From a virus (lineage: Duplodnaviria; Caudoviricetes), in the IMG/VR virus record IMGVR_UViG_3300034021_000250, positions 1 to 57,086 of that record: DNA of 57,086 nt, one strand, 5' to 3'. The position numbers and the translations under genes are program-made. This document shows positions 1 to 26,993 of this stretch, in pieces (position 1 is the stretch's first letter; each line of letters opens with the position of its first letter). The notes below the pieces were generated by a model, which made no database searches, was not told the DNA's origin, and saw nothing but the letters and a program-made list of their open reading frames with translations.

Positions 1-99
1 TGGCGGTGGTGGTGGTGGTGGCGGAGCATTAGGTGCAGCAGGAGGGTCTTCAACATGGGGCGGTGGAGCTGCTGGAGCAGCAACTTCCGGGAATGCGAA
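1..99 (+). repeat. Terminal direct repeat, copy 1 (assembly overlap of a circular contig)
   Basis: 1-99 is identical to 56988-57086 and lies inside one continuous ORF. Confidence 0.95.
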
Positions 100-145
100 A
101 ATAACATGGGTTACAGCCGGTACAAGGCTTGGCGCGTTAAACTAA
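1..145 (+). CDS. 3' end of gp38-like Gly-rich adhesin spanning the circular junction (starts 56374)
   Basis: Frame continues through the overlap: ...GGGAAGAATSGNAKITWVTAGTRLGALN, TAA at 143-145. Confidence 0.85.
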   Translation, partial: GGGGGGGGALGAAGGSSTWGGGAAGAATSGNAKITWVTAGTRLGALN

Positions 146-166
146 TCTAGAATAAGGAAATAAAAA

Positions 167-1156
167 ATGGCTAACATAAATGTCAAAATTATGGGTACTG
201 ACCCGTTCAATAAACTAGTACTTGTAGCTTGTGCCACAGAAGGCAGCGTAAAACCGCTAGAAGAGCAACCGTTATCTGCATACCCATTTGACTTTGGCGG
301 CGCTACTAACGTTGATGAGTTTTTAGCTAACATCCAAGACTCTTGCCGAGAGAAAGCTTTCGCACAAGACCAAGTTTCTTCAGCTGAATATACCGCAGAT
401 AATTGGGTAGGCGCTACAAGCACATTCACACCAGTTCCAGTAGATACTTCAGAATTTACATTCCAAGCTCGAAAAGACGCTATTTACGCAACATACCCAG
501 CGGCTAATATGGACGCTGTAAATGCATTGTGCAATAGGAAGTGGAATCAGATGCAGCTTGCTCCATTACGTAGAGACGTTGACGCTACTATCGTTGGTGT
601 ATATGTAAATGGCTACGGTGGTATGAACGCAGCGGATGCAGCGATTGCACTTCGTTCTATCAAAGAGGCGACTAATGAGTGTGTAGCATTAGGTATCCCG
701 ATGTGCGGAGGCACTACTCCCGTAGACGGTATGTCTAGAGAACGCTTTGAATCATTCCTAACAGGAATTTCGCAATACAATAAGTTTATCAATACAGTTA
801 AACAAAGCTACGTTTACCAAGACTGGAATATTGTATTTGCTAGAAACCGTAAAGCAACACTAATCAAATCAGAGTGCCAGAAGGTAATTGCAGGAGGACT
901 TAACTTCGACGAACACGTATGGGATTCTGATGCTGCTAGCAGAGCTAATATCACTAACTATTTAGTAGCTAACCCTACACTTACAACAACAGAATGGCGT
1001 ACTAAAGGTAATGAACTAGTTAGAGTAGACCTAGCGTTGTTGAGCAAAGCTTTATCGGACTTCGTAACAGCGACGTATCAGGAATCTTGGGCGCGTAAAG
1101 CAGCGCTAGCAGCACTACCACCTGAAACAACTGAGGCTGAGGTCGATGCTATCTAA
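167..1156 (+). CDS. Tail-fibre-associated protein with C-terminal DUF4376-like domain
   Basis: SD AAGGA upstream; C-terminal FDEHVWDSDAASRANIT...EWRTKGNELV resembles DUF4376; follows tail fibre and adhesin genes. Confidence 0.6.
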   Translation: MANINVKIMGTDPFNKLVLVACATEGSVKPLEEQPLSAYPFDFGGATNVDEFLANIQDSCREKAFAQDQVSSAEYTADNWVGATSTFTPVPVDTSEFTFQARKDAIYATYPAANMDAVNALCNRKWNQMQLAPLRRDVDATIVGVYVNGYGGMNAADAAIALRSIKEATNECVALGIPMCGGTTPVDGMSRERFESFLTGISQYNKFINTVKQSYVYQDWNIVFARNRKATLIKSECQKVIAGGLNFDEHVWDSDAASRANITNYLVANPTLTTTEWRTKGNELVRVDLALLSKALSDFVTATYQESWARKAALAALPPETTEAEVDAI

Positions 1157-2018
1157 TGACGCCAAAGTTAAACTTACCCAAGCATTTGTTTATTTAGTCG
1201 CAATCGCTACAGTAGTATTTGCTTGGGACGCTAAGTTATTTTTATGGAGTTTAGCCGCCGGGTGGATCATGTTCGGGATCGGTGGGAGCATATGTCTTCA
1301 CAAACTATCTTCTCACGGTTCCTTCACACCTAAGAACAGGCTAATCAAATGGGCGCTTTTGTGGTTTGGAACTATCAGTTCTTTAGGTAGTACGATTTGT
1401 TGGGCGGCTGGGCATCGTGAGCATCACCAACATGCGGACAAGAATACTGACCCTCATAGACCATACGGTTCAATGTGGCACAAAGTTAAGATGTGGTTCT
1501 ACTATTTCCCAACATGGGATATTAGTCCGCTGATTGTTCGTGATTTAACACAAGACCCAGACCACCGGTTCTTTCACCGGCACTACTACAAGATCATCAT
1601 TAGCTACGTAGTTTTGCTGTTCTTGATTAACCCTGTTTATGTCGGATACTTCTACGCTATACCGGTACTGTATACATTGTTCGGGATTAGCTGGGCTACT
1701 GTAATCGCGCATATCCCGCAGCTAGGGTATTTCTCATGGAGGACGTACAACACTCCTGACTACACGTACAACAGTAATTTCTGGAATGTACTTTTAATGG
1801 GTGAAGGCTACCACAACACGCACCACGCATGTCCTTGGCTATGGAATAACGCTTTGCACGACGGTGAGTGGGACGCTTCAGCTTGGGTGATTAAGTTGAT
1901 TGGTATACCTAATGATTTTCCTGCGAAACCGCATAAACCACCAAGAACAGGTAAGGCTTTACGCGCTGAGTTGATGGAAGTAAGGCGCAAACTTCAGGAA
2001 GGCGGACATGAGTCTTAA
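1146..2018 (+). CDS. Membrane fatty acid desaturase 1 (delta-9/DesC-like)
   Basis: Three His boxes HKLSSH, HREHH, HNTHH; DPH motif; GEGYHN; several hydrophobic helices. Confidence 0.92.
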   Translation: MLSNDAKVKLTQAFVYLVAIATVVFAWDAKLFLWSLAAGWIMFGIGGSICLHKLSSHGSFTPKNRLIKWALLWFGTISSLGSTICWAAGHREHHQHADKNTDPHRPYGSMWHKVKMWFYYFPTWDISPLIVRDLTQDPDHRFFHRHYYKIIISYVVLLFLINPVYVGYFYAIPVLYTLFGISWATVIAHIPQLGYFSWRTYNTPDYTYNSNFWNVLLMGEGYHNTHHACPWLWNNALHDGEWDASAWVIKLIGIPNDFPAKPHKPPRTGKALRAELMEVRRKLQEGGHES

Positions 2019-2823
2019 ACTTACCCACTATCAGAACACTAAGTTACTTCAGGTGTTCGCTTGGGCTGGTACAGCATACTTGCTAATTTGCCATTGGAGT
2101 ACCACCCCTATCGGTTGGTTGATGTTGTTTGGGTGGTTATCTTCAGGTATTGGTTTGGGTATCTGCCACCATCGCTATGCAGCGCATAAGACGTTTGAAC
2201 CAAAGAACAGACTTATTAAGTGGTTCATTCTGTTCGTAGGCACAATCATTACTCATGGCTCTGTCATCGCTTGGACAATCACACATAGATACCACCACAG
2301 GTTCTGTGACACTCCTAGCGATCCTACTAACCCTGAAGGTAGTTGGTGGCACAAGATTAAGTGCTTCTTCTATTACTTTGGCGACATAGAAAGACCGAAC
2401 AGTAACGTGATGGTTTTAGACCTAATACGTGATGAGGATTTTCAATTTTTCCACAAATTCCACTTCCCAATTATCTTCACTTACATTGGGGTGCTAGCGC
2501 TTATTAATCCGATGCTGGTGTTGTACTTCTATTGCTTCCCAGTGTGCTACGTACTATTTACATCAGGCTGGGTGACTACGTTAGCTCACTCTCCGGCGTT
2601 AAGTATATTTGGGTATAGAAACTACGATACGCCAGACAAGACGTTTAACAGTGTCTTTTGGCAAATCTATTCAATGGGTGACGGATACCACAATAACCAC
2701 CATGCATGCCCGTGGTTGTGGAACATGGCAGTGACTAAATATGAATTTGATATATGCGGTCAGTTAGTAAAACTAATTGGGTATCCAAACGACATACCAC
2801 CAACAAAAGTTAAGGATAAGTAA
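2008..2823 (+). CDS. Membrane fatty acid desaturase 2 (delta-9/DesC-like), paralogue of 1146-2018
   Basis: His boxes HRYAAH, HRYHH, HNNHH; shares PKNRLIKW and HHACPWLWN with the upstream gene. Confidence 0.92.
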   Translation: MSLKLTHYQNTKLLQVFAWAGTAYLLICHWSTTPIGWLMLFGWLSSGIGLGICHHRYAAHKTFEPKNRLIKWFILFVGTIITHGSVIAWTITHRYHHRFCDTPSDPTNPEGSWWHKIKCFFYYFGDIERPNSNVMVLDLIRDEDFQFFHKFHFPIIFTYIGVLALINPMLVLYFYCFPVCYVLFTSGWVTTLAHSPALSIFGYRNYDTPDKTFNSVFWQIYSMGDGYHNNHHACPWLWNMAVTKYEFDICGQLVKLIGYPNDIPPTKVKDK

Positions 2824-3440
2824 TGCACTTAGCAATAACAGATTTGTTTCCTACCGCTTTAGCTTCAGTCAGATTAGGTAGAGCATTTACAGATGATGAG
2901 CTAGCTTTTATTGATAGTGAGGCTACCAACACACTTAAGTTTGACTCTCTAATGGGAAAGAACCTAAACATTCTAGATGACCCAAGATTAAGTGATATTA
3001 AGAAGTTTATTGAGGAAGCGGCTAACCAGTACCTGAAAGAAGTCATGTCTAGCAATACGGACGCGTCTTTATATGTAACTCAATCTTGGTTAAACATAGT
3101 GAGTGCTGGTAATAACCAAGGTATGCATATTCACCCTAACAGTTTCTTGACCGGAGTTATTTACATAAAGGTACCTCTAGGAATAGAAGGGTTGGTATTC
3201 CATAAGCACCTTAATTACATAGGTCTAAGAGTCGACCCTGAAGTGCGTAATAAATATAACGAAGAAGACCGTGTAGAGTTAGTACAAGAAGGGCAGGTAC
3301 TTATATTCCCATCAAATTTAATGCACGGAACGCTTACACACGCATCAGTTGATACACCAAGAGTAGCAATTGCCTTTAATACTTTTATACGTGGGACTGT
3401 AGGCAGTATGTACGGGTATAACGAACTAACACTAAGCTAA
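2823..3440 (+). CDS. 2OG-Fe(II) oxygenase (TIGR02466-like)
   Basis: QSWLN...HIHPNSFLTGVIYI...IFPSNLMH...RVAIAFN pattern; TAATG coupling to desaturase 2. Confidence 0.85.
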   Translation: MHLAITDLFPTALASVRLGRAFTDDELAFIDSEATNTLKFDSLMGKNLNILDDPRLSDIKKFIEEAANQYLKEVMSSNTDASLYVTQSWLNIVSAGNNQGMHIHPNSFLTGVIYIKVPLGIEGLVFHKHLNYIGLRVDPEVRNKYNEEDRVELVQEGQVLIFPSNLMHGTLTHASVDTPRVAIAFNTFIRGTVGSMYGYNELTLS

Positions 3441-3446
3441 GGAAAA

Positions 3447-3686
3447 ATGATGGAACAACTTGTAAAACAGATGATTGCCAACAGATTAGATATTGACATT
3501 AGTTTGGTGACTAACGAGGCTAGACTTGTGAAAGACCTTAAAGCAGACTCTCTGGACACAGTCGAGCTTTTGATGGAAATCGAGAGAATGTTAAAGCTAA
3601 GGATTGATGACAGCAGCCTAGGTGATATTTCTACTGTACAGAACATTATTGATCTGGCGGTTAAGCTTCAAGCAACTACAGTTTAG
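3447..3686 (+). CDS. acpP: Acyl carrier protein
   Basis: 79 aa; DLKADSLDTVELLMEIE phosphopantetheine-site motif; ISTVQNIID C-terminal helix. Confidence 0.9.
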   Translation: MMEQLVKQMIANRLDIDISLVTNEARLVKDLKADSLDTVELLMEIERMLKLRIDDSSLGDISTVQNIIDLAVKLQATTV

Positions 3687-3698
3687 TTAGGGGTTTCT

Positions 3699-6600
3699 AT
3701 GCCAGCACAAAGAATAAAGCAGTTTTCAGGAGTTATACCTAGAGTCGACCCACGGGATATTCCTGAGAATGCTGCACAAGACGCGACTAACGTCTTCCTA
3801 ACGTCTGGTCGTATAGACCCGATGCTGCAACCTACAACTGTAGCCACGACGCGGTCAAGTTTAGTTCAGACCATCTACCGATTGTTTAACGGTACTTCTT
3901 CCTACTGGTTAAACTGGTTAGAGCAAGTTGATGTAGCAGAGTCGCCAGTATATGTCTCTAATAACGCAAGGATTGCTTTTACATCACATAGTTTTGAGCC
4001 AAGACAAACCGACCTTACGCTTGCATCAGCATCGCTACCTTATCCAGCTCAGTGGTATGTGCTAGGCGTAACGCCACCCATTACAGAGGCAACGTGTTCT
4101 TCAATCGTAGGCGGTTCTGGAACAGTAGAGAGTCGTTCATATGTATATACATATGTTACACAGTGGGGCGAAGAATCCGCACCGTCTCCTGCGTCTGTTG
4201 TCACAATCCCAGCTGCGACTATTACTGGTTCGATTGCAGATACTACTTTGACAGTATCAGCCATTACATCAGGCTCACTTTCTTTCTCAGGTCAGACTCT
4301 ATCTGGCACCGGAGTCACTTCAGGGACTAAGCTATTAAGCCAACTTACATCAAGTGAAGCAGCGGTAGCTTCAAGATCCTATGCAGTAGGTACACCAGCA
4401 GGGTCAAAATCGCTAACACTAGCTACATTTACAGGTATATCTTACGGTATGTTTGTGACAGGAACTGGTATCCCAAGTAACACTATAGTCACCAACACGC
4501 ACGATAATACTGTTGAGATATCTAGGGCGACTACGGCACAAGCTTCAGGTACGTATAAATTCTGGACAGCTAAGACTAGTTCTAACTTCGCTTACGGCGG
4601 AGTTTCTGGCGCTACTACTATTGCTTTAAGTTATATGAATAACATTGCAATCGGGCAACTTGTATTAGGTACAGGTATCCCAGCAGGGGCTACAGTAACA
4701 GCACTATCAGGAAATATCGCGCAGAGCTTTGCAAGTGGCGGCGCTTATAACACTTCTAGCATTGTATTCGGTTCTGTATCAGGGATTGCCGTAAACCAAT
4801 TTGTAACTGGCGCTGGTATTACAACGGGTACAATCGTAACAGCTATCGACGTCCCAAATAAAACGGTTTCTATATCGCGCCCATTGTCTGTTCAAGCTGT
4901 TGGCGGGTACTCGTTCAATGCCCAGACAATTACAATTTCTGCAGCGCTTACCGAACAAGCAACAGGTACATATGTATTCTTAGATTCAGTGACAAGCAGT
5001 ACATTCCAAGGCGGCGGTAACGCTGGCGCAACATCTTTTGATCTGTTGAATATATCGTCAGTAGCTGTAGGACAATTAGTATCAGGAACTGGTGTACCAG
5101 CTGGAACAACGGTAACAGACGTATCCAGCACTAATAAGATCAGTATTTCGAACGCGTTAACTGCTCAAGCAGTAGGGGCATACGCGTTTTACAACCAAGG
5201 TGGATTAGGTACGTACGAAGTAGATACTTCTCAAACCGCTGCAAGCACTACAATTTCTACTGCTACAAGTGCAGGTTACAGCAACGCAACATGGAACATT
5301 AATATTCCTGATGTAGCGCCAGCTAACACATACACAATCTCTGCAGCGACGTATGCAGATGGAGTACTTACCCTTACGCTTAATACAACCTTTGGTCTTA
5401 GAGCCTTAGAGTTTCTGAACTTTGTAAACGTAGGCGGTATTACAGACTTAAACTACAAGTCATACCAAGTACAGTCAGTTAATGCAGCGTCTAAGCAAAT
5501 CACTATTAATATAACTACAACGCAGTCTTACGTATCAGGCGGCACCGCTACACGGGATGCTCCGCACAACACAGATAAAATGATGAAGCGCGTTTACCGG
5601 ACTGTTACTACAGCTACGGGTACTAACTTCTATCAGGTAGGCGCAGACTTACCAGTAGCAACAACTACGTTCGCAGATAATTACGTAGCTATTGGTGGAC
5701 AACTTGTGACTAGTGGCTGGGTAATGCCTCCAGCTAACCTTCAAGGTGTAGTAACGCATCCTTCAGGGGCTTTAGTTGGGTTTGTAGGTAATACGATATA
5801 TATGTCACAACCCTACAGCATTTACGCTTGGCCTATAACACAAACTAACACGTTAGATTATACGGTCGTAGGGCTAGGAATTACAGGGCAGTCAGTTGTA
5901 GTAGGTACTGAGGGTAGACCATACGTTCTTACATTTACAGACCCTGCTGCTGCGTCAGCACAAAAGCTAGATAACAACTGGCCTTGTTTAGCTAAGAAAG
6001 GTATCACTACCCTAGAGAACGGCGTGCATTACCCATCAACTCTTGGGCTAGTTTATATCGGGGCATCAGGTGCTTCGCTTATATCTGAGAAGTTCTACGC
6101 ACAAAGAGATTGGGCGGCACTTAACCCTAGCTCATTTATCGCGGCGCACTATGACAGTAGATACTACGCGTTCCACGACGACGGTGAAAACCCTCAGATA
6201 CTTATGTTCTCAGGAAGCACTGGTATCTCGTATATCAACTACCAGCCTACAGCAATGTACACAGACCGTAAGAGCGGCGAGATTTATGTAGCATCTAATG
6301 GTTTCGTGCAGCAACTAAACTCTGGTACAGGTTTGTTCATGCAATACAGCTGGAGAAGTAAAGAGTTTGTCAATCCAAACCCAGTTAACTTAGGCGCATG
6401 TAAAGTAGACTTTGAAGGTGCAGTTACAGCCAGTGATGCGGCAGCGATTGAGGCAGCTAATAACGCGATTAAAGAAGCGAACGTATCTTTGCTAGCCAGC
6501 CCTTTAGGTGTGTTGAATGTAGCTCCACTTAACATGTACCGTGTAGACGGGTCGAACTTAGCCGACTTGTATGTACCAGCAGCTAGCGCATCTTACGTAT

Positions 6601-6776
6601 CAATCTCGTTGTACGCTAACGGGAAACTACAGTTCACAAAAGTGGTAAACGATACAAAAGTTTGGCGTTTCCCAGCAGGACTTAAATACGACAATTACTC
6701 AATCGGGATTACTGGTACAGCCCCTGTTAAAGCAGTGGTTCTAGGCGGTACTCCTATGGACTTGAAAGCAGTATAA
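3699..6776 (+). CDS. Tail nozzle / tail tubular protein B-like with inserted repeat domains
   Basis: Podovirus nozzle motifs (FSGVIPR, YVYTYVTQWGEESAPSP, SQPYSIYAWP, YSWRSKEF); lies just before the ejection genes. Confidence 0.75.
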   Translation: MPAQRIKQFSGVIPRVDPRDIPENAAQDATNVFLTSGRIDPMLQPTTVATTRSSLVQTIYRLFNGTSSYWLNWLEQVDVAESPVYVSNNARIAFTSHSFEPRQTDLTLASASLPYPAQWYVLGVTPPITEATCSSIVGGSGTVESRSYVYTYVTQWGEESAPSPASVVTIPAATITGSIADTTLTVSAITSGSLSFSGQTLSGTGVTSGTKLLSQLTSSEAAVASRSYAVGTPAGSKSLTLATFTGISYGMFVTGTGIPSNTIVTNTHDNTVEISRATTAQASGTYKFWTAKTSSNFAYGGVSGATTIALSYMNNIAIGQLVLGTGIPAGATVTALSGNIAQSFASGGAYNTSSIVFGSVSGIAVNQFVTGAGITTGTIVTAIDVPNKTVSISRPLSVQAVGGYSFNAQTITISAALTEQATGTYVFLDSVTSSTFQGGGNAGATSFDLLNISSVAVGQLVSGTGVPAGTTVTDVSSTNKISISNALTAQAVGAYAFYNQGGLGTYEVDTSQTAASTTISTATSAGYSNATWNINIPDVAPANTYTISAATYADGVLTLTLNTTFGLRALEFLNFVNVGGITDLNYKSYQVQSVNAASKQITINITTTQSYVSGGTATRDAPHNTDKMMKRVYRTVTTATGTNFYQVGADLPVATTTFADNYVAIGGQLVTSGWVMPPANLQGVVTHPSGALVGFVGNTIYMSQPYSIYAWPITQTNTLDYTVVGLGITGQSVVVGTEGRPYVLTFTDPAAASAQKLDNNWPCLAKKGITTLENGVHYPSTLGLVYIGASGASLISEKFYAQRDWAALNPSSFIAAHYDSRYYAFHDDGENPQILMFSGSTGISYINYQPTAMYTDRKSGEIYVASNGFVQQLNSGTGLFMQYSWRSKEFVNPNPVNLGACKVDFEGAVTASDAAAIEAANNAIKEANVSLLASPLGVLNVAPLNMYRVDGSNLADLYVPAASASYVSISLYANGKLQFTKVVNDTKVWRFPAGLKYDNYSIGITGTAPVKAVVLGGTPMDLKAV

Positions 6777-6964
6777 TGAAGAAACCTACCATACCAGCAA
6801 TACCATTCGGAACTCCGCAATCTGAGCATCTAAGCGCTATTAAGCAGAATATCGAAATGCTTACTGGTAAGGTAGGCGGAACTATTGAGAACTTAGGAAC
6901 ACAAGCTTCGCTACTCGATGTAATCATCAAACTAAACGAGGTTATAAACAAGCTGCAATCTTAA
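6776..6964 (+). CDS. Small tail-region protein
   Basis: TAATG-coupled to nozzle gene; KPTIPAIP...AIKQNIEMLTG. Confidence 0.65.
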   Translation: MKKPTIPAIPFGTPQSEHLSAIKQNIEMLTGKVGGTIENLGTQASLLDVIIKLNEVINKLQS

Positions 6965-6965
6965 C

Positions 6966-6994
6966 TTGCTTACATGTTAACAATATGGTATAAG
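6966..6994 (+). promoter_or_regulatory. Sigma70-like promoter with overlapping palindromic operator; leaderless start at 7000
   Basis: TTGCTT-17bp-TATAAG with TG extension; TGCTTACATGTTAACA at 6967-6982. Confidence 0.65.
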
Positions 6995-6999
6995 GCAGT

Positions 7000-7422
7000 A
7001 TGACAAAACGCATCCTTTGCACCGAGTCCGATAAGGTTCGCGTAGGCGAATGGGTGTTTGCTCGCACAGGCGGAAAATTCCTTCCAGAGATAGCACAGGC
7101 AATAGGTTTAGAGAAAGACGGCGAGCTTATTGCAGGGGCCGTTTTTGAGAGCTGGAACGGAGCTGTTGTGTACGGTCATTTAGCAATTGCTAATAAGTAC
7201 GGCATGAATCGCGAGTTCCTAAAGTTCAACTTCCAATATGTTTTTAACCAACTAAAAGCTAACAAGTTAGTAGGTATGGTAGCAAGCACAAATACAGACG
7301 CTATCAAACTAGATGAAAACTTTGGGTATGTATTAGAAGCAACTATTAAAGATGGTGTACCAAATGGCGACATGCTTATTTACACGATGACTAAAGAGCA
7401 GTGCCGATTTTTGAAGGACTAG
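7000..7422 (+). CDS. GNAT-fold acetyltransferase-like protein
   Basis: AIGLEKDGELIAGAVF...NTDAIKLDENFGYVLEATIK; usual position before podovirus ejection proteins. Confidence 0.75.
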   Translation: MTKRILCTESDKVRVGEWVFARTGGKFLPEIAQAIGLEKDGELIAGAVFESWNGAVVYGHLAIANKYGMNREFLKFNFQYVFNQLKANKLVGMVASTNTDAIKLDENFGYVLEATIKDGVPNGDMLIYTMTKEQCRFLKD

Positions 7423-7425
7423 AAC

Positions 7426-8658
7426 ATGAGATACGATCACTTTTCAATGCTGCCTACACGGGCATTCCAACCAATCGGCAAACGAATGACGCTAGAAGGC
7501 GGCAAAGGTGATGCTCCTCCACCCCCAGATTATTCACCTATTGCAGCATCAAACGAAGCAGCAGCAAAAATTGCAGCGCAGTCAGCGGCGGACGATTTAG
7601 CTTTCCGTAAGAGCGTCTATGCAGATTCACAGCCACGTCAGCAACAGTTATATGACTTAGCTAGCCAAATCGCAGGTCGTCATGTAACGATGATGGATCA
7701 GAACCAAAAGATTGCTGCCGATAATAACAACTATTACAACAATACATTCCAGCCAATCGAAGCACAGACTGCTATGGATTCAATGGGTTCTCAATATCTA
7801 AGCAAGGCTGATCGTTCGCGACTAGCCAATGTTATGAGTGGTACTTCGGGTTTGACTGGGAGCAATCGTACTTTAGCTATTGATGAAATCGCACGTAATG
7901 CACAGAGTGGCGCTGCAGACCAAGCGCAACAACAAGCAATGGCGCAAAGCAATGGCGCTTACACGCAACAGTCGCAAAACTTAGCCCGTATGGGTCTTGA
8001 CCCTTCACGTTTAGCTGCAGCTGCAGCAAGTCTTGCACAGAACCAAACGTCAAACCAAATCAATTCCGCTAACCAAGCGCGTACAAATATCTTTAACCAA
8101 CAAGCCGGTCTTCGTACCGGTGTAGCTAACTTCGGTCGCAACATGCCTAACACTGCAACACAAGCATACGCAACTGCTGGCAACATGGGTAACAGCGCAG
8201 TCAACAATCAAAACACAGGCTTTCAGTCAGGTCTTCCGTACGCTAACTACGTATCTGGTTCAGTACCTAACTCAATCAATGCAGCAAATACTCAAGTACA
8301 AGGCAACCTAGGTTTAGGCCAACTAATGAACGGCTCTTACGCTACACAAATGCAAGGCTACAACAGTGGTGGCGATATGCTTGGTGGCTTAATGGGCTTA
8401 GGCAGTTCTTTAGGCAGTGCTTACATTATGAGAGGCTCTGATAGAAACATTAAAGAAAATATCAAACGCCTTGGTGAGCTTGATAACGGTCTTGTTATTT
8501 ACGAATTTGAATATAAAGAACCGTACAAAAATGTATGGGGGCATGGGCGCAAGATTGGTGTCATGGCTGACGAAGTTGAGTCAGTTCTTCCAGCTGCCGT
8601 TTCTGTGCATCCGGATGGGTATAAGGTAGTTGATTACAGCATGATTGGAGCAGCGTAA
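7426..8658 (+). CDS. DNA ejection/pilot protein with C-terminal S74-type intramolecular chaperone domain
   Basis: Q/N/A-rich helical body, Gly-rich hydrophobic segment, then GSDRNIKENI...GVMADEVE...VDY. Confidence 0.7.
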   Translation: MRYDHFSMLPTRAFQPIGKRMTLEGGKGDAPPPPDYSPIAASNEAAAKIAAQSAADDLAFRKSVYADSQPRQQQLYDLASQIAGRHVTMMDQNQKIAADNNNYYNNTFQPIEAQTAMDSMGSQYLSKADRSRLANVMSGTSGLTGSNRTLAIDEIARNAQSGAADQAQQQAMAQSNGAYTQQSQNLARMGLDPSRLAAAAASLAQNQTSNQINSANQARTNIFNQQAGLRTGVANFGRNMPNTATQAYATAGNMGNSAVNNQNTGFQSGLPYANYVSGSVPNSINAANTQVQGNLGLGQLMNGSYATQMQGYNSGGDMLGGLMGLGSSLGSAYIMRGSDRNIKENIKRLGELDNGLVIYEFEYKEPYKNVWGHGRKIGVMADEVESVLPAAVSVHPDGYKVVDYSMIGAA

Positions 8659-10325
8659 TGGGTAACTTTTGGAGAAGCTTTAGTGAAGGCGTCACAATGG
8701 GTGACAGGATTAACGATAAATTAGATAAGTATCGTATCGGTAAAGAACTACGTGCTATCAACAGTGAGTCGCCTACACGTGAATACTCAAATGAAGGTCT
8801 TACAGAGATCAACAACTCAGACCCTAATTCAGGTAAAGAATGGGTATCAACAAACAGCGAAGATAATCCACTAGGCATTGGTGGAGGTAGCGGTTATTGG
8901 AAAGACTCAGCCGGTAATCAGTTTGCTCCACAAGATACACCTACTGTTGACGATAGAGGTAACTACACATTAGCTAATGGTAAAACAGTCGGCCTTAGCC
9001 AGTATCGTCTTGGAGACCAAGTTCAAGAAAAGGAGTTCTCAAAGCACCAACTCCAAGCATATCGCTTAGAAAAAGCAGCACAAGTAATGGACTCTATGGG
9101 TGAACCAGAAAAAGCGCAACAGTATCGCGCTCAAGGTTTACAAACACAAATGCTTGGTGAGCAACTCCAAACAATGCGTGACCAGTCTGACGAAAAAAAT
9201 CAGTTCAAAGAAGGTTTCAAGAACGCACAAAAGATAACACTAGGTTGGGATCAGGCTAAACAACAAGCACAGGATTTATATGCCGCAGGTGATGTTGAAG
9301 GCGCTGGTAAAGTGTTAATCAACTTCTACAACAAGCAAGTACCTGATGGTACTAATGCCTACATGGATGACTCAGGCCACCTACACTATTCACAGGGTGA
9401 CAAGTTAACGTCTGCTCAAGCAAACATCTATAACCCAGACACATTCAAGAAAATGGTTCAAGCTGGCGACTCTCAAGTTCAAGCGCACATTAAGTCTTTA
9501 ATCCCTGTTCAAAGTTTTGAGCAAATGATGACAATGCGCACAGCAGACAACCAAGACCGCGGATTTAACGAAGGCGTGCGTCAGTTTGGTATTACAAGCG
9601 GTCAACGCGACGCAGAACTTACTGATAACCGTAACTACCGTCAAGGTACCCTAGATAATGCTGCTGCAGAATTGAAAATGAAACAACCGTACTACGCTTC
9701 AGAAGCCGCTAAAAATAAAGCAGAAGCAACTTGGTATGGTCGTCGTTCTGGTGGTGGTGAACACGCATCAGTATGGGCGCCTGTTGGACAAGATAAAGAC
9801 GGCACAATTGTTTCATTTGATAGAACAACAAACCGCCTAGCTCGTACTGATGGTAAACCTGTACAAGACCAAAGCTTATTCAGAAAAGTTACTGGTGAAA
9901 AATCTACTAGAGAAATGACTCCAGACGACCTAGTTAAAATTAGGTCTATCGCGTCAGAAACACCGGGCTGGGATGATATGCCAGCAGGTAAGCAACAAGA
10001 AGTTATTAGTGGGATTATGCAGCAATTTAACTTTGCTCCGTCATCTGATAAATCAAGCGATCCAATGAGTGTTACTCCTCCTGATGGGTCTCCTAGAAAA
10101 GGTAAACCTTCTGGTGCAAGCCTTAATCTCAGAGGCCCAATGGGGCAAGACTTAGGATTTACTCAAGCGGATTTAGATTCTGTTAGACGCAGGAACGGTA
10201 CTGTAACGTTGTCATCAAACAAAGAACCAACGCGTGCTGAGATTGAAGAAGCTAGAAAGCACGCACAAAATAAACCAGCACTAGGATTAAATACCAGCAA
10301 CACGTTTAGCCCATTTGCTTTGTAA
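8658..10325 (+). CDS. Internal virion (ejection) protein
   Basis: TAATG-coupled; hydrophilic helical composition; sits between pilot and giant protein. Confidence 0.6.
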   Translation: MGNFWRSFSEGVTMGDRINDKLDKYRIGKELRAINSESPTREYSNEGLTEINNSDPNSGKEWVSTNSEDNPLGIGGGSGYWKDSAGNQFAPQDTPTVDDRGNYTLANGKTVGLSQYRLGDQVQEKEFSKHQLQAYRLEKAAQVMDSMGEPEKAQQYRAQGLQTQMLGEQLQTMRDQSDEKNQFKEGFKNAQKITLGWDQAKQQAQDLYAAGDVEGAGKVLINFYNKQVPDGTNAYMDDSGHLHYSQGDKLTSAQANIYNPDTFKKMVQAGDSQVQAHIKSLIPVQSFEQMMTMRTADNQDRGFNEGVRQFGITSGQRDAELTDNRNYRQGTLDNAAAELKMKQPYYASEAAKNKAEATWYGRRSGGGEHASVWAPVGQDKDGTIVSFDRTTNRLARTDGKPVQDQSLFRKVTGEKSTREMTPDDLVKIRSIASETPGWDDMPAGKQQEVISGIMQQFNFAPSSDKSSDPMSVTPPDGSPRKGKPSGASLNLRGPMGQDLGFTQADLDSVRRRNGTVTLSSNKEPTRAEIEEARKHAQNKPALGLNTSNTFSPFAL

Positions 10326-10344: not shown

Positions 10345-13300
10345 ATGGCTTTAATTGATGACATCCGTAAGAAATATGCTGGTACCGCTTATGACAAAAT
10401 GTCAGACTTTGATATCGCTAAACATATCGCTGACAGCTCGGGCAGGAAAGTTGATGCAGTCGCTTACGATTTAGGTATCGACCTATCGCTTCCGAAGTCT
10501 GACATAGGTAAAGAAATTCATGCCGGTGGTAATAACTACGCCGCTGGCATGCGTCATATCCAGCACGCGTTAACAGGAAATAATGAGTATCTTGTAAAAG
10601 CACTTAATGATTCTGATCGCGCTGAGTTCTTACAAAGCCAATCTAAGGCTCCACACTCTTGGGATGAAGTAAAACTAGGTGATAGTGATAAAGGTCTTAC
10701 TAACTATCTAGGTCAAGGTTTTGCTAGTTCACTCCCTTATATGGCTGAAGCAGCTGTGTATGGTTTAGCAGACTACTTTTCAGGTGGCGCATTAACTCCA
10801 GCTATTGTTGAACGCTATGCAGGACAAGCCGCTTTAAAAGCAGGTGCTAGAGAATCAGTCGCTAAGAACATCGGAAATTCAGCTGCTAAAACAGCTGGTA
10901 TGACAGCAGCTACATACCCTTCAGCGCTTGGCGACGTTCTATCTAACCAGTACAACCAATCTGGTGAATATAACATGGGCTACGCTCTTCCAGCCGCCCT
11001 ACCATATGCAGCACTTAATTCACTTGGTCTTGAAGGTGCTTTAGCACGCAGGTCTATCACACGTGGATTAGTCGAACCAACTACTAGCCGTCTTGCTAAT
11101 GCTGCTATCGGCTTTGGTCGTACAGGTATCGAAGAAGCTATTGGTGAAACTGGTCAAGAAGTCGTTAACCAGTACGGTCGTCGTTCAGTTGATAGTTCAT
11201 ACGACCCTATGGGTGCGCAAGCAATGGCTGCGTATAAAGAATCAGCTATCCTTGGCGGATTGATGGGCGGCTTGCCGGGTGGTATTCACGGTGCATTCCA
11301 AAAAGGTACTATCGACCACAGCGACCCAACAGATTTGTTAGGTAAACGCACTACACACGAAGACCAAGCATACTACCAAGCACTTCAAGGCGCTAATAAC
11401 TTTAAGGCGCCTGACTATTTAACGCCTAACGTTAATCAAGGTGCTGGAGTTGGTACGCAAGAGTGGATTAACCAACAAACAGGCGTAGGCGCATCATCTA
11501 ACGTGTCTCGTAAAGACGTAGCCGCAGCATTCAACGAAAAGCTAGATACCCCGCAAATTGTTCTTGATGCTAAAGGTACTCCGTATACAACGGATAGTGC
11601 AGCTGATGTATTTGAGTTTGAACAGTTTGGTCGTACGTCTAAGAACGCTACTAAGGCTCAAAAAGCTGCTGCGCAAGCGCAACAAAACACACAGAATACT
11701 ACACAAAATAATACACAAGATACTGCAAAAGAAGAGGCAGCTTGGGACTATGTGCATCCAGAAACAGGCGAGGCAATCCCTAAAGCAGCTGAACTTGGTA
11801 TCAAGTCTATCAAGAAACAACAAGCATACGAGATGGTTGCATCAGCATTACACGATGGCACTATTGACCAAGCAGAGTTTGAGGCTCAAGTTAATGCTAT
11901 TCAAACAACACAAAAAATTGGCTCACTAACTACACGAATCGAAAAAGAACTACGTGCTGCACGTGATGTTAAAACAACAGGTAGTAACGTTTCTACAGCT
12001 GACTCACAAGCACTAGGTACTGTTCTAAAGAGCATGGTGACACCTGAGCAATTGAAATGGTGGGAAGCTAGACAAGACCCATTAAACGAAAATAAATCAG
12101 ATGCAACTATCGCTAAAGAACTAGGCTTCACTCGTCAGAACGGTAGTAAGCTTGCTAAGAACTCACGTAAAGTTGTTGCACAGAAAGTTGCTAATGCCTT
12201 CGGTATTACACCAGAAGAAGCTGACGCACGCATCGTAGAACACTTAAAAGCTACAGCGCCTAAAGCAGTTGCTGCAGAAAACAACGTTGGTATGTCACCA
12301 GAGTCACAACAGTCAGTCATTGATAAAACAGACCTAACCTCAAACGACGAGAGTGGCAGCGTACAAAGCATGGGTGTTATCAACAGTGTCGGTGGCTCTC
12401 AACGTGGAAACATGTCTGTAGGTAAAACAGAACTACCACCAAACTATGTAGAGACAGTTAACCCTAGCAACAATGCTAGGGCCGCTGCAAACGTAGCACG
12501 TGAACAGCATATACATGATATGTTAAATGACCCTGAGCATAAGAATGCTGCTAACGATTGGAACGACTTTAAGTCTGAAGGCACACCAGAATTTCACGAG
12601 CTTTCACCAGAAGTACGCGCAGATTTTATTTCAGACTACATTGAAATTATCAACGCAAAAGAGGAATATGACTGGACTGACGGTGAAGAACTTCGTCAGA
12701 TCGAACTTGCGCAACGTGAAGCAGAACAATTACTAGGGAGCAGCGATGTCAGAGATAGCCAAAGCACTGGAAAAGTGGAAGGAAATTCCACCGGAAGTAC
12801 GCAAACAGATGGTAGAAAAAAATCCGAAGTACGCGCCATTGGAAAGAATGGTAGCGCTGATGGAAGCACAAACACCGCAACCACAGACGACGAACTCGCA
12901 AGATTAATTGCTTCACAAGAAGAAGACGTTCAATCTGAAAATATTGATGACAACGAAACCGAAGATGGTGGCGCAAGACGTTCAGAATCCGGCGCTACTA
13001 CTGGCACATCAGTTGTTAACATCAAAGCAACTTTAAAAGCTTTATTCCTATCCCCAGCTAAGTTTGACCAGCTAGTTAAAATCGTACAGTCAGTTAAAGA
13101 TATTCCTGAAAACGTACGCGCTAACGCACAACTATCTGACTCAGACAGAACTACTCAAGGTTTTGCTTGGGAAGGTAAAGTGTATTTGATCGCTGACAAT
13201 ATCGCTGAGAAATCTACCCTTGCTGTGTTCTTACATGAACTCGGCGTACACGTTGGGTTAGAAAAACTTCTTGGTGAAGATAACTTCAGAAACCTAGCAG

Positions 13301-16300
13301 CTCAAATTTCAGAATGGTCTGCTCGTACAGATAATTCATTAGAAGCTCGTCTAGCACGTAAGGCTATGGAACGAGTTGAGTCCGCAGCAAACAGCGCTGA
13401 TAAGCGCGGTCAATCATTTGAAGATGGTGATTATCTACACGAGATGATTGCGTACTTTGTAGAAGAAGCCGTACTTGCTGGTGTAGACCCTACTGCAGTG
13501 ACACATATTAAATCAGCTGGCCTACGTGAATGGTTCCGTAAATTCACCGCTGCTATGAAACTAGGTCTACGTAAACTTAGCCTAGGTCGTTTTGATTTGC
13601 TTACAGCACAGAACATCGTTGATATGACCTTCGGTGCAGCTGACCTAGAACTTAACGGTACATGGCATGGCACAGCAGCGGACTTCCGAAACTTCGACCA
13701 CAAGTACATGGGGTCTGGTGAAGGCGCTCAAGCGTTTGGATGGGGTTCGTACTTTGCTCAACGTAAAGGCATTGCTAACGACTACCTAGATCAAGACGTC
13801 AGAAGAAAATCTAGCCGTGCTTCGCACTGGGTTAACGAGAAACGCAGTGAGATTACTAAGTTTGCAAATGTGATCAAAGCCAAGTATGCAGAAAAAATAG
13901 CTGAGATTCTAAGTAAAGAAGGCGCTCAATCAGGCCACTTAAAACTTGCCAAGCTACTAGGCTTTATCGACATGCAACGGTTTAACATGAACTCTTACGC
14001 TGAGTTCCTTGAAGCAATAGGCCAAGAAATTGCTAACGAAAACTTTACCAGAGCTTTTGGTGGTATGCGTATAAATAGCCCCATCATTGGTGATGAAAAT
14101 TCTAAAATAGCTGCCGTTTCGCCAGCAATGGTTAATGAAGCAATTGATAAACTGCTCAAGTCTAAACCTATCGAAGGTTCAATGATGCGTGTTCGTCCTT
14201 TAGTGGCAGAAAACGAGCTGCTTGACTGGGATGCACCTTTAGATGAGCAATCACCGCAAGTACAAAAAGTAATAGACAAAATTAGCGATGATATTAAAGA
14301 ACGCGCTGACGACTTATCTCGCCATGGTAATGCTACAGGTGAAACGCTATACCGTGCTATCCATGAAGCTGCTGATGAAGGTATGTTCTGGAAAGAAGCT
14401 GGTGTTGAAGATACTGGCAGACGTCAAGATGCACAGAAGGTCGCAAGTCTATACTTAGATAAACTAGGTATTCCGGGTCTTAAGTTCTTAGACCATCCTA
14501 GCCGTAATAAGAAAGATTTGGACGCTGCTCAAAGTGCGACACGTAATATCGTTGTGTTTAACGACAAGAACATCTCACGCGCAGCAACACAAATTGGTGG
14601 TGATTCAAACCGTGTACGCTTCTCACAAACAGACGAAGAAGTACCTGAAGAGCAATCTACTGTACGCAATCCATTAGGTGATAAACGTAAAGCAGCTATG
14701 ACAGACATCGGTGCAGCATTTGCTACGGTGACACCTAAGCTTCTAACAAACTACCAACTAGTAGACCAGTTCGGTAAGAAATTAAAAGCCTTGGTTGAAT
14801 ACATGAACTTGAACGACAAGATGACTGTGCTTCAACAAAAGCTAGTTCGTTCTTCACATGACATCCTTGAGAGCTGGAACAAACTATCACGTACTTCACC
14901 TAAGATGGCATGGCGTTTATCAGGTGTAATGCATGACGCTACACTCGAAGGTATCCACCCTGACTTGGCATTTGATGATGAACTTAACTCTCACCTAGAT
15001 AAAGTTAAAGACCGTGAGAAGTATGACGCATTGAAGTTACGCTATAACGCGTTAACAACAGAAGCTAAAGAAACCTATCAGGCAGTTAAGGCTACGCTTG
15101 CAAACAACTGGAAACTACGTAAAGAAATTTACGCTGACGTTGTACGTATGGCATATGCCAAACAACTTGAGTTAGCTAAAGCAAACAAAGACCAAAAAGA
15201 AATCGACCGCATTGAAGCTAAGATTGCTAAGGAAATCGAAAACCACGCTGACCAAATCAAATCAATCCGTGGCCCTTACTTCCCACTCATGCGTTTCGGT
15301 GACTTCTTAGTTATTGCTGAATCTAATGAGTTGCAAGCAGCACGTGAAGAGTTGCAAACTGCAACCGGTGATCGCTTCAAAGAAGTTAAGAAGCGCGTTG
15401 TAGCTATGGAGAAAGACGCTAAACATTATCAAGTGCATTCATTTGATAAAGCATCTGAACAAAAAGCTATGGCAGCGAAGCTAGAGAACACGCACGAAGT
15501 ACGTCTAACCAAAGGTGAAGACTACCAACGTGAATTACGCCCATCAACATTCGGTCAACTAGAACAACTAGACAACGTACTTGGTACAGAGTTTGGTTCT
15601 AGAGCTAGTGGTATCTCAGCTAAGATTCGTGACGCGGTTACTGAAATGTACTTAAGCTCTATGCCTGAGCATTCAGCACTCCAACGTCAAATTAAACGTC
15701 ATGGTATCCAAGGTGCTTCACAAGACATGATGCGCTCATTTGCTGAGTTGATGGAACGCGATTCGTTCTACTTATCACGCATGCGCTTTATGCCAGAAAT
15801 CACATCTAGCTTGTACAAGATGAAAGACGAGTCTCGTGCTAGCAACGAACTACGTGATGTATACAACAACGTTAAATCTCGTATGGCTATGGACTTCTCA
15901 TACACCAGAGCGCCTGTAGCAGCGTTTTTATCTAGACTAAGTTCTATCTGGCACTTAGGTGTTGCACCATCATACTTACTAATCAACGGTACACAGCCTT
16001 GGACTATTACCATGCCGCAACTAGCTGGTAAGTTTGGCGGAGCAAAAGCATTTGGTGCTATGCGTTCTGCTTGGGCTGATTCAGTACGAATTATTAAAGG
16101 GGGTCGAAATGGCGAATTCTTTAGTCTATCTAACGCTGATTTGTCTAAGACGCTTGCTGGCGATGAGCTACGTATGGCTACAGAACTTCAAGACTTGGGT
16201 AAATTGGACATCGCTCAAAACATTGACACTGAAGTGTACGCTTCAGGCACTGACCCTAAATGGATTCGCGCTCAACGTGTATTTAACTGGGCTTCTCATA

Positions 16301-17459: not shown

Positions 17460-17957
17460 CTGATTAGTCACCCGACCCACATAACCGGCAGAGCAGCCGA
17501 GGCGTACGTTAGATATGATTTATCAAAGCGTGGCTATGTTGTCTGTGCTGGATTTGAAGGTGCGCCATATGACCTACTTGTAGACGTCGGTAAAAAGTTT
17601 ATCCGCATACAGGTAAAGGGTACGGAGAAGGTATCTCAAAAGAAATCAGGTGCGCACTACACGCCAACGTACAAATTTAGTACGGCTGGAATGAAACCAG
17701 AATGTGATGTTGTTGCTTTGGTTGCGTTGGATATTGAAAAGATTTGGTACGCTGATCTAGCAGACTGCCTATATAAAGACAAGGTTTGGGTACCAACTAA
17801 GCGGATGGTTCTTGGGTCTGATGCCGCACTTCTCGCCGCAATCCAGCTAGGTATGCACCCCATAACCTCCATGCCGCCTTGCGCTCTGGTAAATACTCCG
17901 CATGATTGTAAACAGCCATCACACCTTCCATCGTGTGATTCAGCATTTTCTCTGTAA
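17460..17957 (+). CDS. PD-(D/E)XK endonuclease (group I intron-associated type), non-canonical start
   Basis: Frame of ORF 17691 is open back to TAA 17454-56 and encodes GRAAEAYV...PYDLLVD...RIQVKG...CDVVALV; first codons ACG CTG ATT. Confidence 0.7.
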   Translation: MISHPTHITGRAAEAYVRYDLSKRGYVVCAGFEGAPYDLLVDVGKKFIRIQVKGTEKVSQKKSGAHYTPTYKFSTAGMKPECDVVALVALDIEKIWYADLADCLYKDKVWVPTKRMVLGSDAALLAAIQLGMHPITSMPPCALVNTPHDCKQPSHLPSCDSAFSL

Positions 17958-18888
17958 CGTGTGGCATTACACCTTTATCGTTTAGGTGGGTAGTAATCGT
18001 TCTACGGAAATCATGGGGCGTGTAACTAACGCCTCTTCGTTTTATTGCCCGTGCCATTACTCGATGGTCTCCAACGTAAGGTGGTGGAACAATTTTAAGA
18101 ACCATTCTGGCTTGAGGTGAGAGGTATACTTTATGCAGCTTTTTATTCTTGTTACCTTTTTGATCGGTGGGGATGTGCCACCAGCAACCGTTGATCTGTG
18201 CTTTACAAATCCCAAGTACCTCACTGGCTCGTTGACCTGTAAGTAACGCAAGTGCCAAAGCAGCACGAGTTCGATAATCCATTCGTGGTGTGCGTAGTTC
18301 GATTAGTAGGTTTTTAATTTCTTCTACCGACAAAACTTTGGTACGTGGCTTCTCTTTACCACCAACAGCTTTTTTAGTTAGCGGCAGCAGAACATTATTT
18401 TCTATGTCACCGCGTTCAACAGCAAAACCAAATATAAGTTTGATGTCAGTTAGCACCCTATTCGCCATGATGGGTGAACCGCGTTCTACAATCTTTTCTA
18501 AAAGCTTCGCAACCTCTGCCCTTTTAACCGTTCTGATGTCTCTAGAGCCTAGTACGGGCTTAATTTCTTTTTCGTACTTGTACATAAACTGCTCAGGATT
18601 TACGTACCTTCTCTTAACATGTTTGTAGAAGGCTGTGAACACTTTATCCACGGTTGGAATATCTTCTGCGATACCTTCAGGGGTATGAACAAAGTTTGTT
18701 GCAAGCTTTCTTGCGTCAGCTAGTCCCAAATTGGGATAGTCGCCTAACTTAATCCATTTACTTTTGTGACGGTACAAAAACTCTTTACGTCCAGATGTGT
18801 GAACTCTAAGGTATAATTTTTTACCAGCCAATATAAACTGGTCTTTGTCAGTAGGCTTTAAGCCTTTTAATTCTTTATCGGTCAACAT
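17797..18888 (-). CDS. int: Tyrosine integrase, P4-like with N-terminal arm-binding domain
   Basis: LTDKELK...LYLRV...GRKEF N-terminus; catalytic TGQRASE, HDFRRT, LNH, VYNHAEY. Confidence 0.95.
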   Translation of the reverse strand: MLTDKELKGLKPTDKDQFILAGKKLYLRVHTSGRKEFLYRHKSKWIKLGDYPNLGLADARKLATNFVHTPEGIAEDIPTVDKVFTAFYKHVKRRYVNPEQFMYKYEKEIKPVLGSRDIRTVKRAEVAKLLEKIVERGSPIMANRVLTDIKLIFGFAVERGDIENNVLLPLTKKAVGGKEKPRTKVLSVEEIKNLLIELRTPRMDYRTRAALALALLTGQRASEVLGICKAQINGCWWHIPTDQKGNKNKKLHKVYLSPQARMVLKIVPPPYVGDHRVMARAIKRRGVSYTPHDFRRTITTHLNDKGVMPHVTEKMLNHTMEGVMAVYNHAEYLPERKAAWRLWGAYLAGLRREVRHQTQEPSA

Positions 18889-26558: not shown

Positions 26559-26993
26559 TTACTTTTTTATGGTTAACCACTCAGTAGGACGGTCATCACC
26601 TTCTGGGTACGTCGTGCTGTAAAGTGTCAACATACGTAAATTACACATAGCATGTGCTAAGTGAGGTAGCCCACTCTCAGGGTCATTCTCTTCACCGCGC
26701 TGCCAAGCAGCCATATGTCGCATAGCACAAGCAAAAGGCACAGACCAATCCATACCCTTAGCCCAGTTCCATGCTGCGTACTTTCTCTTACCGTATTCCC
26801 ACACCCTAGCTTCATCAGCTAACGTACACATTGGGATTAACGACATGTCAGGCTTGCCACCGTTATAGCGTGCGCCACTACCTTTTTCTGTGCTGTTTAC
26901 ATCACCTACTGAATACATCGTGTTAGCCATTGGGTCGTACATTTCTGCGGATTTCTTACCTGTTTTATCTAGCAATGCGTCCAAAGCGTCCAT
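26559..26993 (-). CDS. dATP/dGTP diphosphohydrolase (DUF5664-like)
   Basis: RYNGGKPDMSLIP...GKRKYAAWNWAKG...RH...DPESGLPHLAHA. Confidence 0.85.
   Translation of the reverse strand: MDALDALLDKTGKKSAEMYDPMANTMYSVGDVNSTEKGSGARYNGGKPDMSLIPMCTLADEARVWEYGKRKYAAWNWAKGMDWSVPFACAMRHMAAWQRGEENDPESGLPHLAHAMCNLRMLTLYSTTYPEGDDRPTEWLTIKK

Follow-up and report, generated by a model that had tools for sequence, protein, structure and literature searches.

A mobile desaturase and acyl carrier protein island in the structural region of a freshwater podovirus

The virus record IMGVR_UViG_3300034021_000250 is complete, comprises 57,086 bp with direct terminal repeats and represents the genome of a freshwater podovirus; its whole length is referred to below as the window. 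Within its structural region, a tail-fibre-like gene and a gene for a large virion protein enclose four genes for two membrane fatty-acid desaturases (des1 and des2), a 2-oxoglutarate (2OG)- and Fe(II)-dependent oxygenase and an acyl carrier protein (ACP). A preliminary description of this DNA had listed four overlapping or abutting genes at 1146-3686, and the open reading frames (ORFs) lie exactly there, all on the plus strand (Table 1). We propose that this island probably lets the phage alter the fatty-acyl chains of its host late in infection.

Table 1 Genes of the island and its two flanking genes. Pfam cut-offs were 29.7 bits for PF00487, 27 bits for PF13759 and 20.8 bits for PF00550.
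Feature	Position	Strand	Evidence
DUF4376 tail-fibre-like protein, 329 aa; anchors the island on its upstream side	167..1156	+	PF14301, E 1.9e-14; PHROG tail/tail-fibre families
des1, SCD1-like di-iron membrane fatty-acid desaturase (predicted), 290 aa	1146..2018	+	PF00487, 60.1 bits
des2, paralogous desaturase (predicted), 271 aa	2008..2823	+	PF00487, 52.5 bits
2OG-Fe(II) oxygenase, PF13759/TIGR02466 type, 205 aa	2823..3440	+	PF13759, 68.5 bits; phrog_81, E 5.2e-35
AcpP-like ACP, 79 aa	3447..3686	+	PF00550, 33.3 bits
1025-aa virion protein; downstream island boundary, outside the lipid set	3699..6776	+	phrog_511 'internal virion protein', E 5.7e-117

The reading frames are tightly packed. Overlaps of 11 nt (fibre/des1), 11 nt (des1/des2) and 1 nt (des2/oxygenase) are followed by gaps of 6 nt and 12 nt, and a purine-rich, Shine-Dalgarno-like stretch lies ahead of every island start. 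Scanning window positions 1-9000, i.e. the late structural block, returned no sigma-70-like promoter (as compared to 16.1 ± 3.6 in shuffled sequences) and seven terminator-like sites (6.9 ± 2.8 in shuffles, hence no excess). The lack of an evident promoter or terminator noted in the preliminary description thus held up, and fits read-through from the structural genes. GC content at third codon positions (GC3) was 0.48 in des1 and 0.49 in des2, as compared to 0.34-0.36 in the flanking fibre, oxygenase and virion genes.

Near-identical DNA, covering at least part of the window, was present in freshwater or lake metagenomes (21 rows from 20 studies, three possibly being the source of the record itself). 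Contigs from other lake metagenomes spanned the junctions between des2, oxygenase, ACP and virion genes at ≥99% identity, suggesting that the present gene arrangement is stable in this phage population, and no alternative joints or variants of the island occurred among the metagenomic DNA contigs compared. A blastn search of the island region against cultured phages returned no match.

Both desaturases carry the three histidine boxes (HX4H, HX2HH and HNxHH) and have the string HHACPWLWN in common, as had been recognized before. Nine histidines (H52, H57, H90, H93, H94, H189, H223, H226 and H227) do not vary among 19 family members, and the same holds for an alignment of 58 sequences except for H223 (≥90%). 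In structures of the mammalian acyl-CoA desaturase SCD1, nine histidines coordinate the two metals. SCD1 shares the His-box pattern and is the best solved relative of the family: a profile search against the Protein Data Bank (PDB) returned acyl-CoA desaturase 1 (4ymk, E 1.2e-23; 4zyo, E 6.9e-22). An AlphaFold2 model of des1 (pLDDT, a per-residue confidence score, 95.9; pTM, its counterpart for the overall fold, 0.92) displays a pair of long helical hairpins plus a helix at the C-terminus. Its long helices (residues 4-25, 29-56, 147-161 and 163-185) and the hydrophobic stretches of the protein (~6-51 and ~147-190, each corresponding to one hairpin) conform to a four-helix membrane architecture. 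The C-terminal helix of des1 (~residues 269-285) is basic and is lacking from des2, which is 45% identical to des1 and keeps every histidine ligand. We conclude that des1 and des2 are SCD1-type, four-helix, di-iron membrane desaturases with all metal ligands intact and with predicted desaturase activity. The window enzymes (271-290 aa) are shorter than SCD1 (318-339 aa), and while SCD1 acts on acyl-CoA, the carrier in the window is a prediction. Classification of des1 and des2 as DesA orthologues was rejected, since with the NCBIfam DesA equivalog model, whose cut-off is 400 bits, they reached only 35 and 54 bits.

Orthologues of des1 were found at 90, 84 and 82% identity. The comparison with the 82%-identical orthologue (locus L003) yielded a ratio of nonsynonymous to synonymous substitution rates (dN/dS) of 0.045, synonymous sites being saturated in the other pairs. 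The island genes are real and under purifying selection. With orthologues in L003, L004, L006/L007 and L008, des2 falls into a five-sequence clade of its own (support 98), inside the same 28-sequence subfamily as des1. Duplication followed by divergence had been suggested in the preliminary description; the two genes are indeed paralogues, but a recent tandem duplication is disfavoured (approximately unbiased test, p = 0.030) and des2 appears older. A common origin of des2 with the des1 clade was not rejected (p = 0.128), the groups for both tests having been chosen after the tree was seen.

The ACP carries its phosphopantetheine serine, S35, within a DSL motif (D34-S35-L36), likewise in agreement with the preliminary description. 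Residues D34, S35, L36, V39 and E46 are invariant in 20 phage ACPs, and the window protein has a net charge of -5. NCBIfam ACP models scored it at 69.6 and 64.6 bits, slightly below their cut-offs, and a profile of the 20 phage ACPs matched housekeeping ACPs (1x3o, E 5.6e-25; E. coli 1acp, E 1.5e-23). By profile similarity, the phage ACP family is most like housekeeping AcpP. Pairwise identities of des1 and ACP co-vary (Spearman 0.64, 120 pairs), as compared to a coefficient of 0.38 for des1 and the fibre protein (105 pairs).

To map the island across viruses, a pattern scan of IMG/VR was performed, which returned 193 stretches with des1 relatives. The best 80 loci were kept, ORFs were called in all of them and neighbours were labelled with phmmer and with hidden Markov models (HMMs) built from recurring neighbours. 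The des1 clade comprised 27 fetched loci, which collapse into 17 clusters when des1 is grouped at 95% identity. In 15 of the 17 clusters, des1 was followed within 6 kb by an ACP gene; a second desaturase gene was found downstream in nine, and a 2OG oxygenase gene in 13 (12 by the HMMs built here, plus L008/L029 by Pfam), with L006/L007 carrying one 2 kb upstream. A DUF4376 fibre-like gene directly preceded des1 in 24 fetched loci. Gene orders vary (des1-des2-ACP, des1-ACP-des2 or des1-149aa-ACP), with ACP retained in each of these orders. As judged from these neighbourhoods, desaturase and ACP form the conserved core of the island. The synteny of desaturase, ACP and oxygenase that the preliminary description had proposed to look for is therefore a recurrent one with respect to desaturase and ACP, and 2OG oxygenases do recur, but the particular oxygenase of the window is not a fixed constituent.

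The core resides on at least three phage backbones. Loci L003 and L036 share the podovirus backbone of the window, including homologues of its virion protein and of a GNAT-like gene. T4-like myovirus genes follow the island in L007, where des1-des2-ACP gives way directly to T4-type terminase and gp20 portal genes, and in L008 (neck and gp15 proteins after des1-des2-ACP-ACP-oxygenase). In L013 and L030, representing a third backbone with a phrog_1328 head, the island is located between a fibre gene and an endolysin gene. This distribution implies that the desaturase(s) and ACP move together as a module. In the cultured Ralstonia phage Cimandef, the island is absent and the virion-protein homologue directly follows the tail-fibre gene, suggesting the island to be an insertion at that junction. 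Rather than an intrinsic part of the tail operon, as had been assumed in the preliminary description, the four genes are, on this comparative evidence, an accessory and horizontally mobile island that separates the fibre gene from the virion gene following it, and such modules lie inserted in late blocks of several types of aquatic phages.

The same adjacency is seen elsewhere. In an unrelated virus type (L069, L072 and L074), a desaturase gene adjoins an ACP gene amid genes for LpxO-like PF05118 oxygenases and a methyltransferase; positions 1979-8272 of L069 encode two desaturases, an ACP, an FkbM-type methyltransferase and four ORFs matching the HMM of the LpxO-like neighbour (two of the four also match PF05118 itself). 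The closest cellular homologue (34% identity), from a Pseudobdellovibrionaceae metagenome-assembled genome (L084), has ACP, ketoreductase and ketosynthase genes as its neighbours. The desaturases of L069 and L084 fall into one clade (support 95). Desaturase-ACP adjacency arose again, independently, in the L069-type virus and in the L084 cluster.

With respect to the oxygenase, H102-x-H104...H168 and R180 are invariant in 29 sequences, the second ligand being a histidine instead of the usual Asp/Glu, and the metal and 2OG site is, by residue conservation, intact. The window protein scored 59.6 bits with TIGR02466 (cut-off 62.5), its closest homologue is 38% identical, and its PDB relatives (3bvc and 2rg4) are both uncharacterised proteins. 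The two nearest fetched relatives (des1 82% and 76% identical) lack an oxygenase of the window type, the corresponding slot holding a 149-aa protein in L003 and being empty in L004. At least four oxygenase groups occur across the islands, namely PF13759, two within PF13640 and one with an HxD...H pattern that has no Pfam match. Going by this gene content, the oxygenase is a swappable accessory rather than a fixed member of the island. The 149-aa protein represents a family of 145-200 aa with an HxHPW...GGYKE...PGS...FH motif and no Pfam family, which lies between des1 and ACP in 12 of the 17 clusters (for example L003 9620-10084 and L013 6863-7309, with 16 further loci). The family may represent a further metal enzyme; its classification among divergent 2OG oxygenases was rejected (hhalign probability ≤13%).

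Enzymes of the LpxO/OlsC type (PF05118) 2-hydroxylate lipid A and ornithine lipid. They are paired with desaturases in related viral islands, while the window's own oxygenase is of the PF13759 type. Across 30 long records, we found 16 PF05118 matches in 10 records; as read from the coordinates, 11 of the 16 lie within ~2 kb of a desaturase gene, corresponding to ~4-5 independent lineages near a desaturase as compared to four far from one. PF13640 matches were next to a desaturase in only one of four records. A cultured example is Pelagibacter phage Mosig EXVC030M (L165, 54771-65325), in which a gene with a desaturase domain abuts an Asp_Arg_Hydrox gene. The surrounding block of Mosig encodes TauD-like, FMN-reductase, peroxiredoxin, aminotransferase and radical-SAM-like proteins.

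The wider desaturase family is large. A phmmer search against 1.84 billion representatives returned 3223 matches at E 1e-3, falling to 762 at 1e-10 and to 26 at 1e-30. In phylogenetic trees, the viral desaturases form one large group with only Bdellovibrionota nested inside; homologues from Verrucomicrobiota, Bradyrhizobium, Acidobacteriota and Actinomycetota fall outside. Two or more desaturase paralogues per fetched locus were present in 33 of 51 dereplicated viral clusters (18 with two, eight with three, four with four and three with five), and four of the best 150 homologues are fused proteins of 528-700 aa with two PF00487 stretches (P0125, P0160, P0169 and P0201, all metagenomic). The occurrence of multi-paralogue loci and fused di-desaturases suggests that two desaturases may cooperate. 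The second desaturase of the L026-L035 type stems from a distant clade, implying that desaturase pairs were assembled more than once.

Viral contigs of up to 228 kb harbor five diverged paralogues head-to-tail (L065 5884-9541, L066 2397-6211 and L083 5941-10081), and in another viral group (L037-L056) two conserved desaturase paralogues, in tandem or convergent orientation, lie immediately next to genes for the large and small ribonucleotide reductase subunits, glutaredoxin and a PAAR protein. A tblastn search of des1 against cultured phages returned three records, two of which derive from an 'Acinetobacter phage' assembly with bacterial-looking surroundings. In one record (Acinetobacter phage MD-2021a; L166, 51189-59905), the desaturase match lies amid btuB, baeSR, ugpQ and ydiU, a setting that resembles a bacterial chromosome.

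SCD-like fatty-acid desaturases (FADs) of viruses are a published class of auxiliary metabolic genes (AMGs), and the available text of three reports connects them with membrane fluidity (PMC7300359; PMC7678222; PMC5776448). Those of cyanophages are delta-9 lipid desaturases, as shown in yeast (PMC5776448). Viral FADs from cyanophages (PMC5776448), Arctic brine and sea ice (PMC7300359) and Nitrospirota viruses of Lake Baikal (PMC7678222) are, as far as these texts extend, the same SCD/DesC-like membrane enzymes with three His boxes, for which stearoyl-CoA desaturase served as the modelling template, and with an SCD-like desaturase on a bona fide virus genome, the window belongs to this class. 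The published genes, as presented there, are single, whereas the window combines two paralogues with an ACP and an oxygenase in a mobile set within a late structural block. The term 'acyl carrier' is absent from the text of PMC7300359, PMC7678222 and PMC5776448 in the form available, although supplementary gene maps might show neighbours. No description of a phage desaturase-ACP set was found in the full-text literature, a scope that leaves subscription journals and supplements outside.

Taken together, we tentatively favour a reading in which the island, expressed late, uses O2 to tailor acyl chains that derive from the host and are carried by the phage ACP, the products feeding host lipid assembly (rough probability 0.45). 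The island would share its transcript with the late structural genes, and its translation is probably coupled to theirs. The phage ACP would be converted to its holo form by the host enzyme AcpS, proposed here because the phage encodes no phosphopantetheinyl transferase (PPTase), and would be loaded by the host's type II fatty-acid synthase or an acyl-ACP synthetase, proposed because the phage encodes no ligase. The acidic ACP could then dock on the desaturases at their basic cytoplasmic face, and these enzymes would add cis double bonds to the tethered chain, using O2 and electrons from host ferredoxin or flavodoxin; des1 and des2 might act on different chain positions or as a heteromer. Where present, the 2OG oxygenase would oxidise the chain further, most likely to a hydroxyl, and one ACP-bound chain might, as the preliminary description had proposed, be both doubly desaturated and hydroxylated. 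Host acyl-ACP-dependent acyltransferases would then build the modified chains into phospholipid or lipid A. As a result, envelope fluidity or surface lipids would change late in infection, possibly easing lysis or, given the location beside a receptor-binding gene, masking receptors.

Several observations weigh against this proposal. The complete genome contains no match, at E up to 0.1, to PF01648 (PPTase) or PF00501 (ligase), nor any match to PF00975 (thioesterase) or PF00301 (rubredoxin); the preliminary description was right in stating that ligase, PPTase and thioesterase are not visible, and a host enzyme would be needed to generate holo-ACP. The ACP is evolving much faster than the desaturases (36-52% versus 76-84% identity to the nearest relatives), and no desaturase-ACP fusion was found in a word-indexed search of longer des1 relatives or among homologue lengths, which is weak evidence. 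Among characterised enzymes, the closest relatives use acyl-CoA (SCD1) as substrate or act, according to the available text, on acyl-lipids (cyanophage FADs; PMC5776448), not on acyl-ACP. Even within the des1 clade, two clusters (L009/L011 and L018) show no ACP gene in the available 6-12 kb contigs. Outside the clade, a PF00550 gene occurs in only four of 46 viral records, in one of them ~200 kb from the desaturases, implying that the desaturase family does not depend on a viral ACP; the ACP dependence expected by the preliminary description is therefore not a property of the family, most viral relatives lacking a viral ACP. As 2OG oxygenases are very common among phage genes, their presence nearby may be a hotspot effect. 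Finally, no RNA run is listed among the sequencing runs matching the locus, and the late timing is predicted from the gene layout.

In the main rival explanation, the genes would be independent AMGs collected in a hotspot for accessory genes, the desaturases being ordinary delta-9 acyl-lipid or acyl-CoA enzymes that fluidise the membrane, the ACP supplementing host fatty-acid synthesis and the oxygenase serving an unrelated substrate (protein, nucleic acid or small metabolite). Viral SCD-like FADs have an established place in the literature with a fluidity role (PMC7300359; PMC7678222) and delta-9 activity in yeast (PMC5776448), at least in the text available, and 42 of the 46 non-clade viral records lack an ACP. 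The slot after the fibre gene is variable, AMGs of other kinds, for instance cysH, reside in the structural modules of related phages, and the oxygenase is freely swapped. Phage-borne ACPs also occur apart from desaturases: Rhodobacteraceae prophages carry an AcpP-like ACP alone or with fabF/fabG, as described in the accessible part of PMC8224337, and there the ACP, though AcpP-like as in the window, is linked to elongation enzymes derived from host fab genes. Weighing against a mere collection of genes, desaturase and ACP have moved together, a few genes apart, onto at least three unrelated backbones, their adjacency arose independently in L069 and L084, and des1 and ACP identities co-vary. 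We regard independent acquisition as somewhat less likely than the favoured reading.

ACP-dependent membrane desaturases are known from JamB (10.1101/291195) and from the desaturase triad of polyyne biosynthesis (PMC9828172), both of which, in the text available, require a dedicated ACP. As in the window, the JamABC and polyyne clusters (cay, pgn, ccn) have membrane desaturase(s) beside a dedicated ACP; several desaturases cooperate there, as they may in the window, with three desaturases in the polyyne clusters as opposed to two here. The preliminary description had drawn on these pathways. However, their defining set, as given in the accessible text, consists of ligase, ACP, desaturase(s), thioesterase and rubredoxin (PMC8406139; PMC9828172; 10.1101/291195); with ligase, thioesterase and rubredoxin all missing, the window is set apart by gene content and is not a JamABC/polyyne cassette. 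It may resemble these systems in its possible mode of working, without being a member. This bears on the idea that a desaturase/acetylenase pair and the oxygenase produce an alkyne, a polyene or a polyyne-like or hydroxylated fatty acid, to be released as a signal, toxin or anti-competitor. The existence of ACP-dependent desaturase/acetylenases, together with the need of polyynes for several desaturases and a designated ACP (available text of PMC8406139, PMC9828172 and 10.1101/291195), lends this idea some substance, as do the viral arrays of up to five paralogues, the fused di-desaturases and the L084 cluster with its own ketosynthase and ketoreductase. Yet with two desaturases instead of three, without fatty acyl-AMP ligase, thioesterase or rubredoxin in the complete genome, with no evident release enzyme and with an ACP closest to housekeeping AcpP, the window makes such a small-molecule pathway very unlikely. 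Least probable, in our view, is a lipidation of the virion, in which acyl-ACP would donate the modified chain to a fibre or ejection protein, aided by the nearby GNAT acyltransferase. The position of the island among late structural genes, flanked by those for fibre and virion protein and with the GNAT-like gene close by, is what invites this thought, but the GNAT gene is kept at the same place in desaturase-free cultured Ralstonia and Burkholderia phages, the neighbours of the island differ on T4-like and other backbones, and the island yielded no protein acyltransferase of the acyl-ACP-dependent kind.

Elsewhere in the genome, the window encodes an integrase, a family A DNA polymerase, ThyX, an SNF2 helicase, a portal and a terminase. 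The portal has its top match in Rhizobium phage RHph_TM3_14A (37.5% identity), followed at greater distance by Roseobacter CRP, Pelagibacter HTVC and HMO-2011-type podoviruses, and the large virion protein, the GNAT and the C-terminal part of a 2368-aa protein match the structural block found in podoviruses of Ralstonia, Burkholderia and Sinorhizobium, Cimandef among them. The GNAT-like 'acyl-CoA N-acyltransferase' (7000-7422, plus strand; phrog_4470) lies in the structural block of island-free Ralstonia, Burkholderia and Rhizobium podoviruses and, being conserved in phages without the island, was rejected as an island member. The 2368-aa protein (10345-17451, plus strand) is ~25% identical, over residues 1422-2328, to DarB-like antirestriction/methylase/helicase proteins of podoviruses and occupies the same position as its counterpart in Cimandef. 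The integrase (17797-18888, minus strand) belongs to the tyrosine type and carries an Arm DNA-binding domain, suggesting that the phage may be temperate. At 26559-27029 (minus strand), beside unannotated ORFs, lies a gene for a protein with a dATP/dGTP diphosphohydrolase N-terminal domain (PF18909, E 5.6e-30), a domain known from MazZ of phages with 2-aminoadenine genomes; no PurZ-like gene was among the 20 window ORFs scanned.

Viral desaturases have so far been treated as single 'membrane-fluidity' AMGs, whereas the relatives described here usually come in several diverged copies, and one lineage has recruited an ACP of its own, the set hopping between unrelated phage backbones together with iron oxygenases. 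A bolder reading, which we consider unlikely, holds that aquatic phages of several morphotypes share a mobile, ACP-dependent, heteromeric di-iron multi-desaturase machine, supplied by the AcpP-like carrier of the phage and equipped with interchangeable 2OG/LpxO-like hydroxylases, making polyunsaturated, acetylenic or hydroxylated chains foreign to the host that would enter lipid A or other surface lipids, there masking receptors or excluding superinfection, or be released as a bioactive lipid; if true, this would be the first ACP-thiotemplated lipid-tailoring pathway from viruses. Should the ACP be the substrate carrier, the phage would command a private acyl pool, orthogonal to the lipid synthesis of its host. 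This would constitute a new viral route to rewrite the bacterial envelope and provide, in compact form, membrane desaturases together with their matched carrier for lipid engineering.

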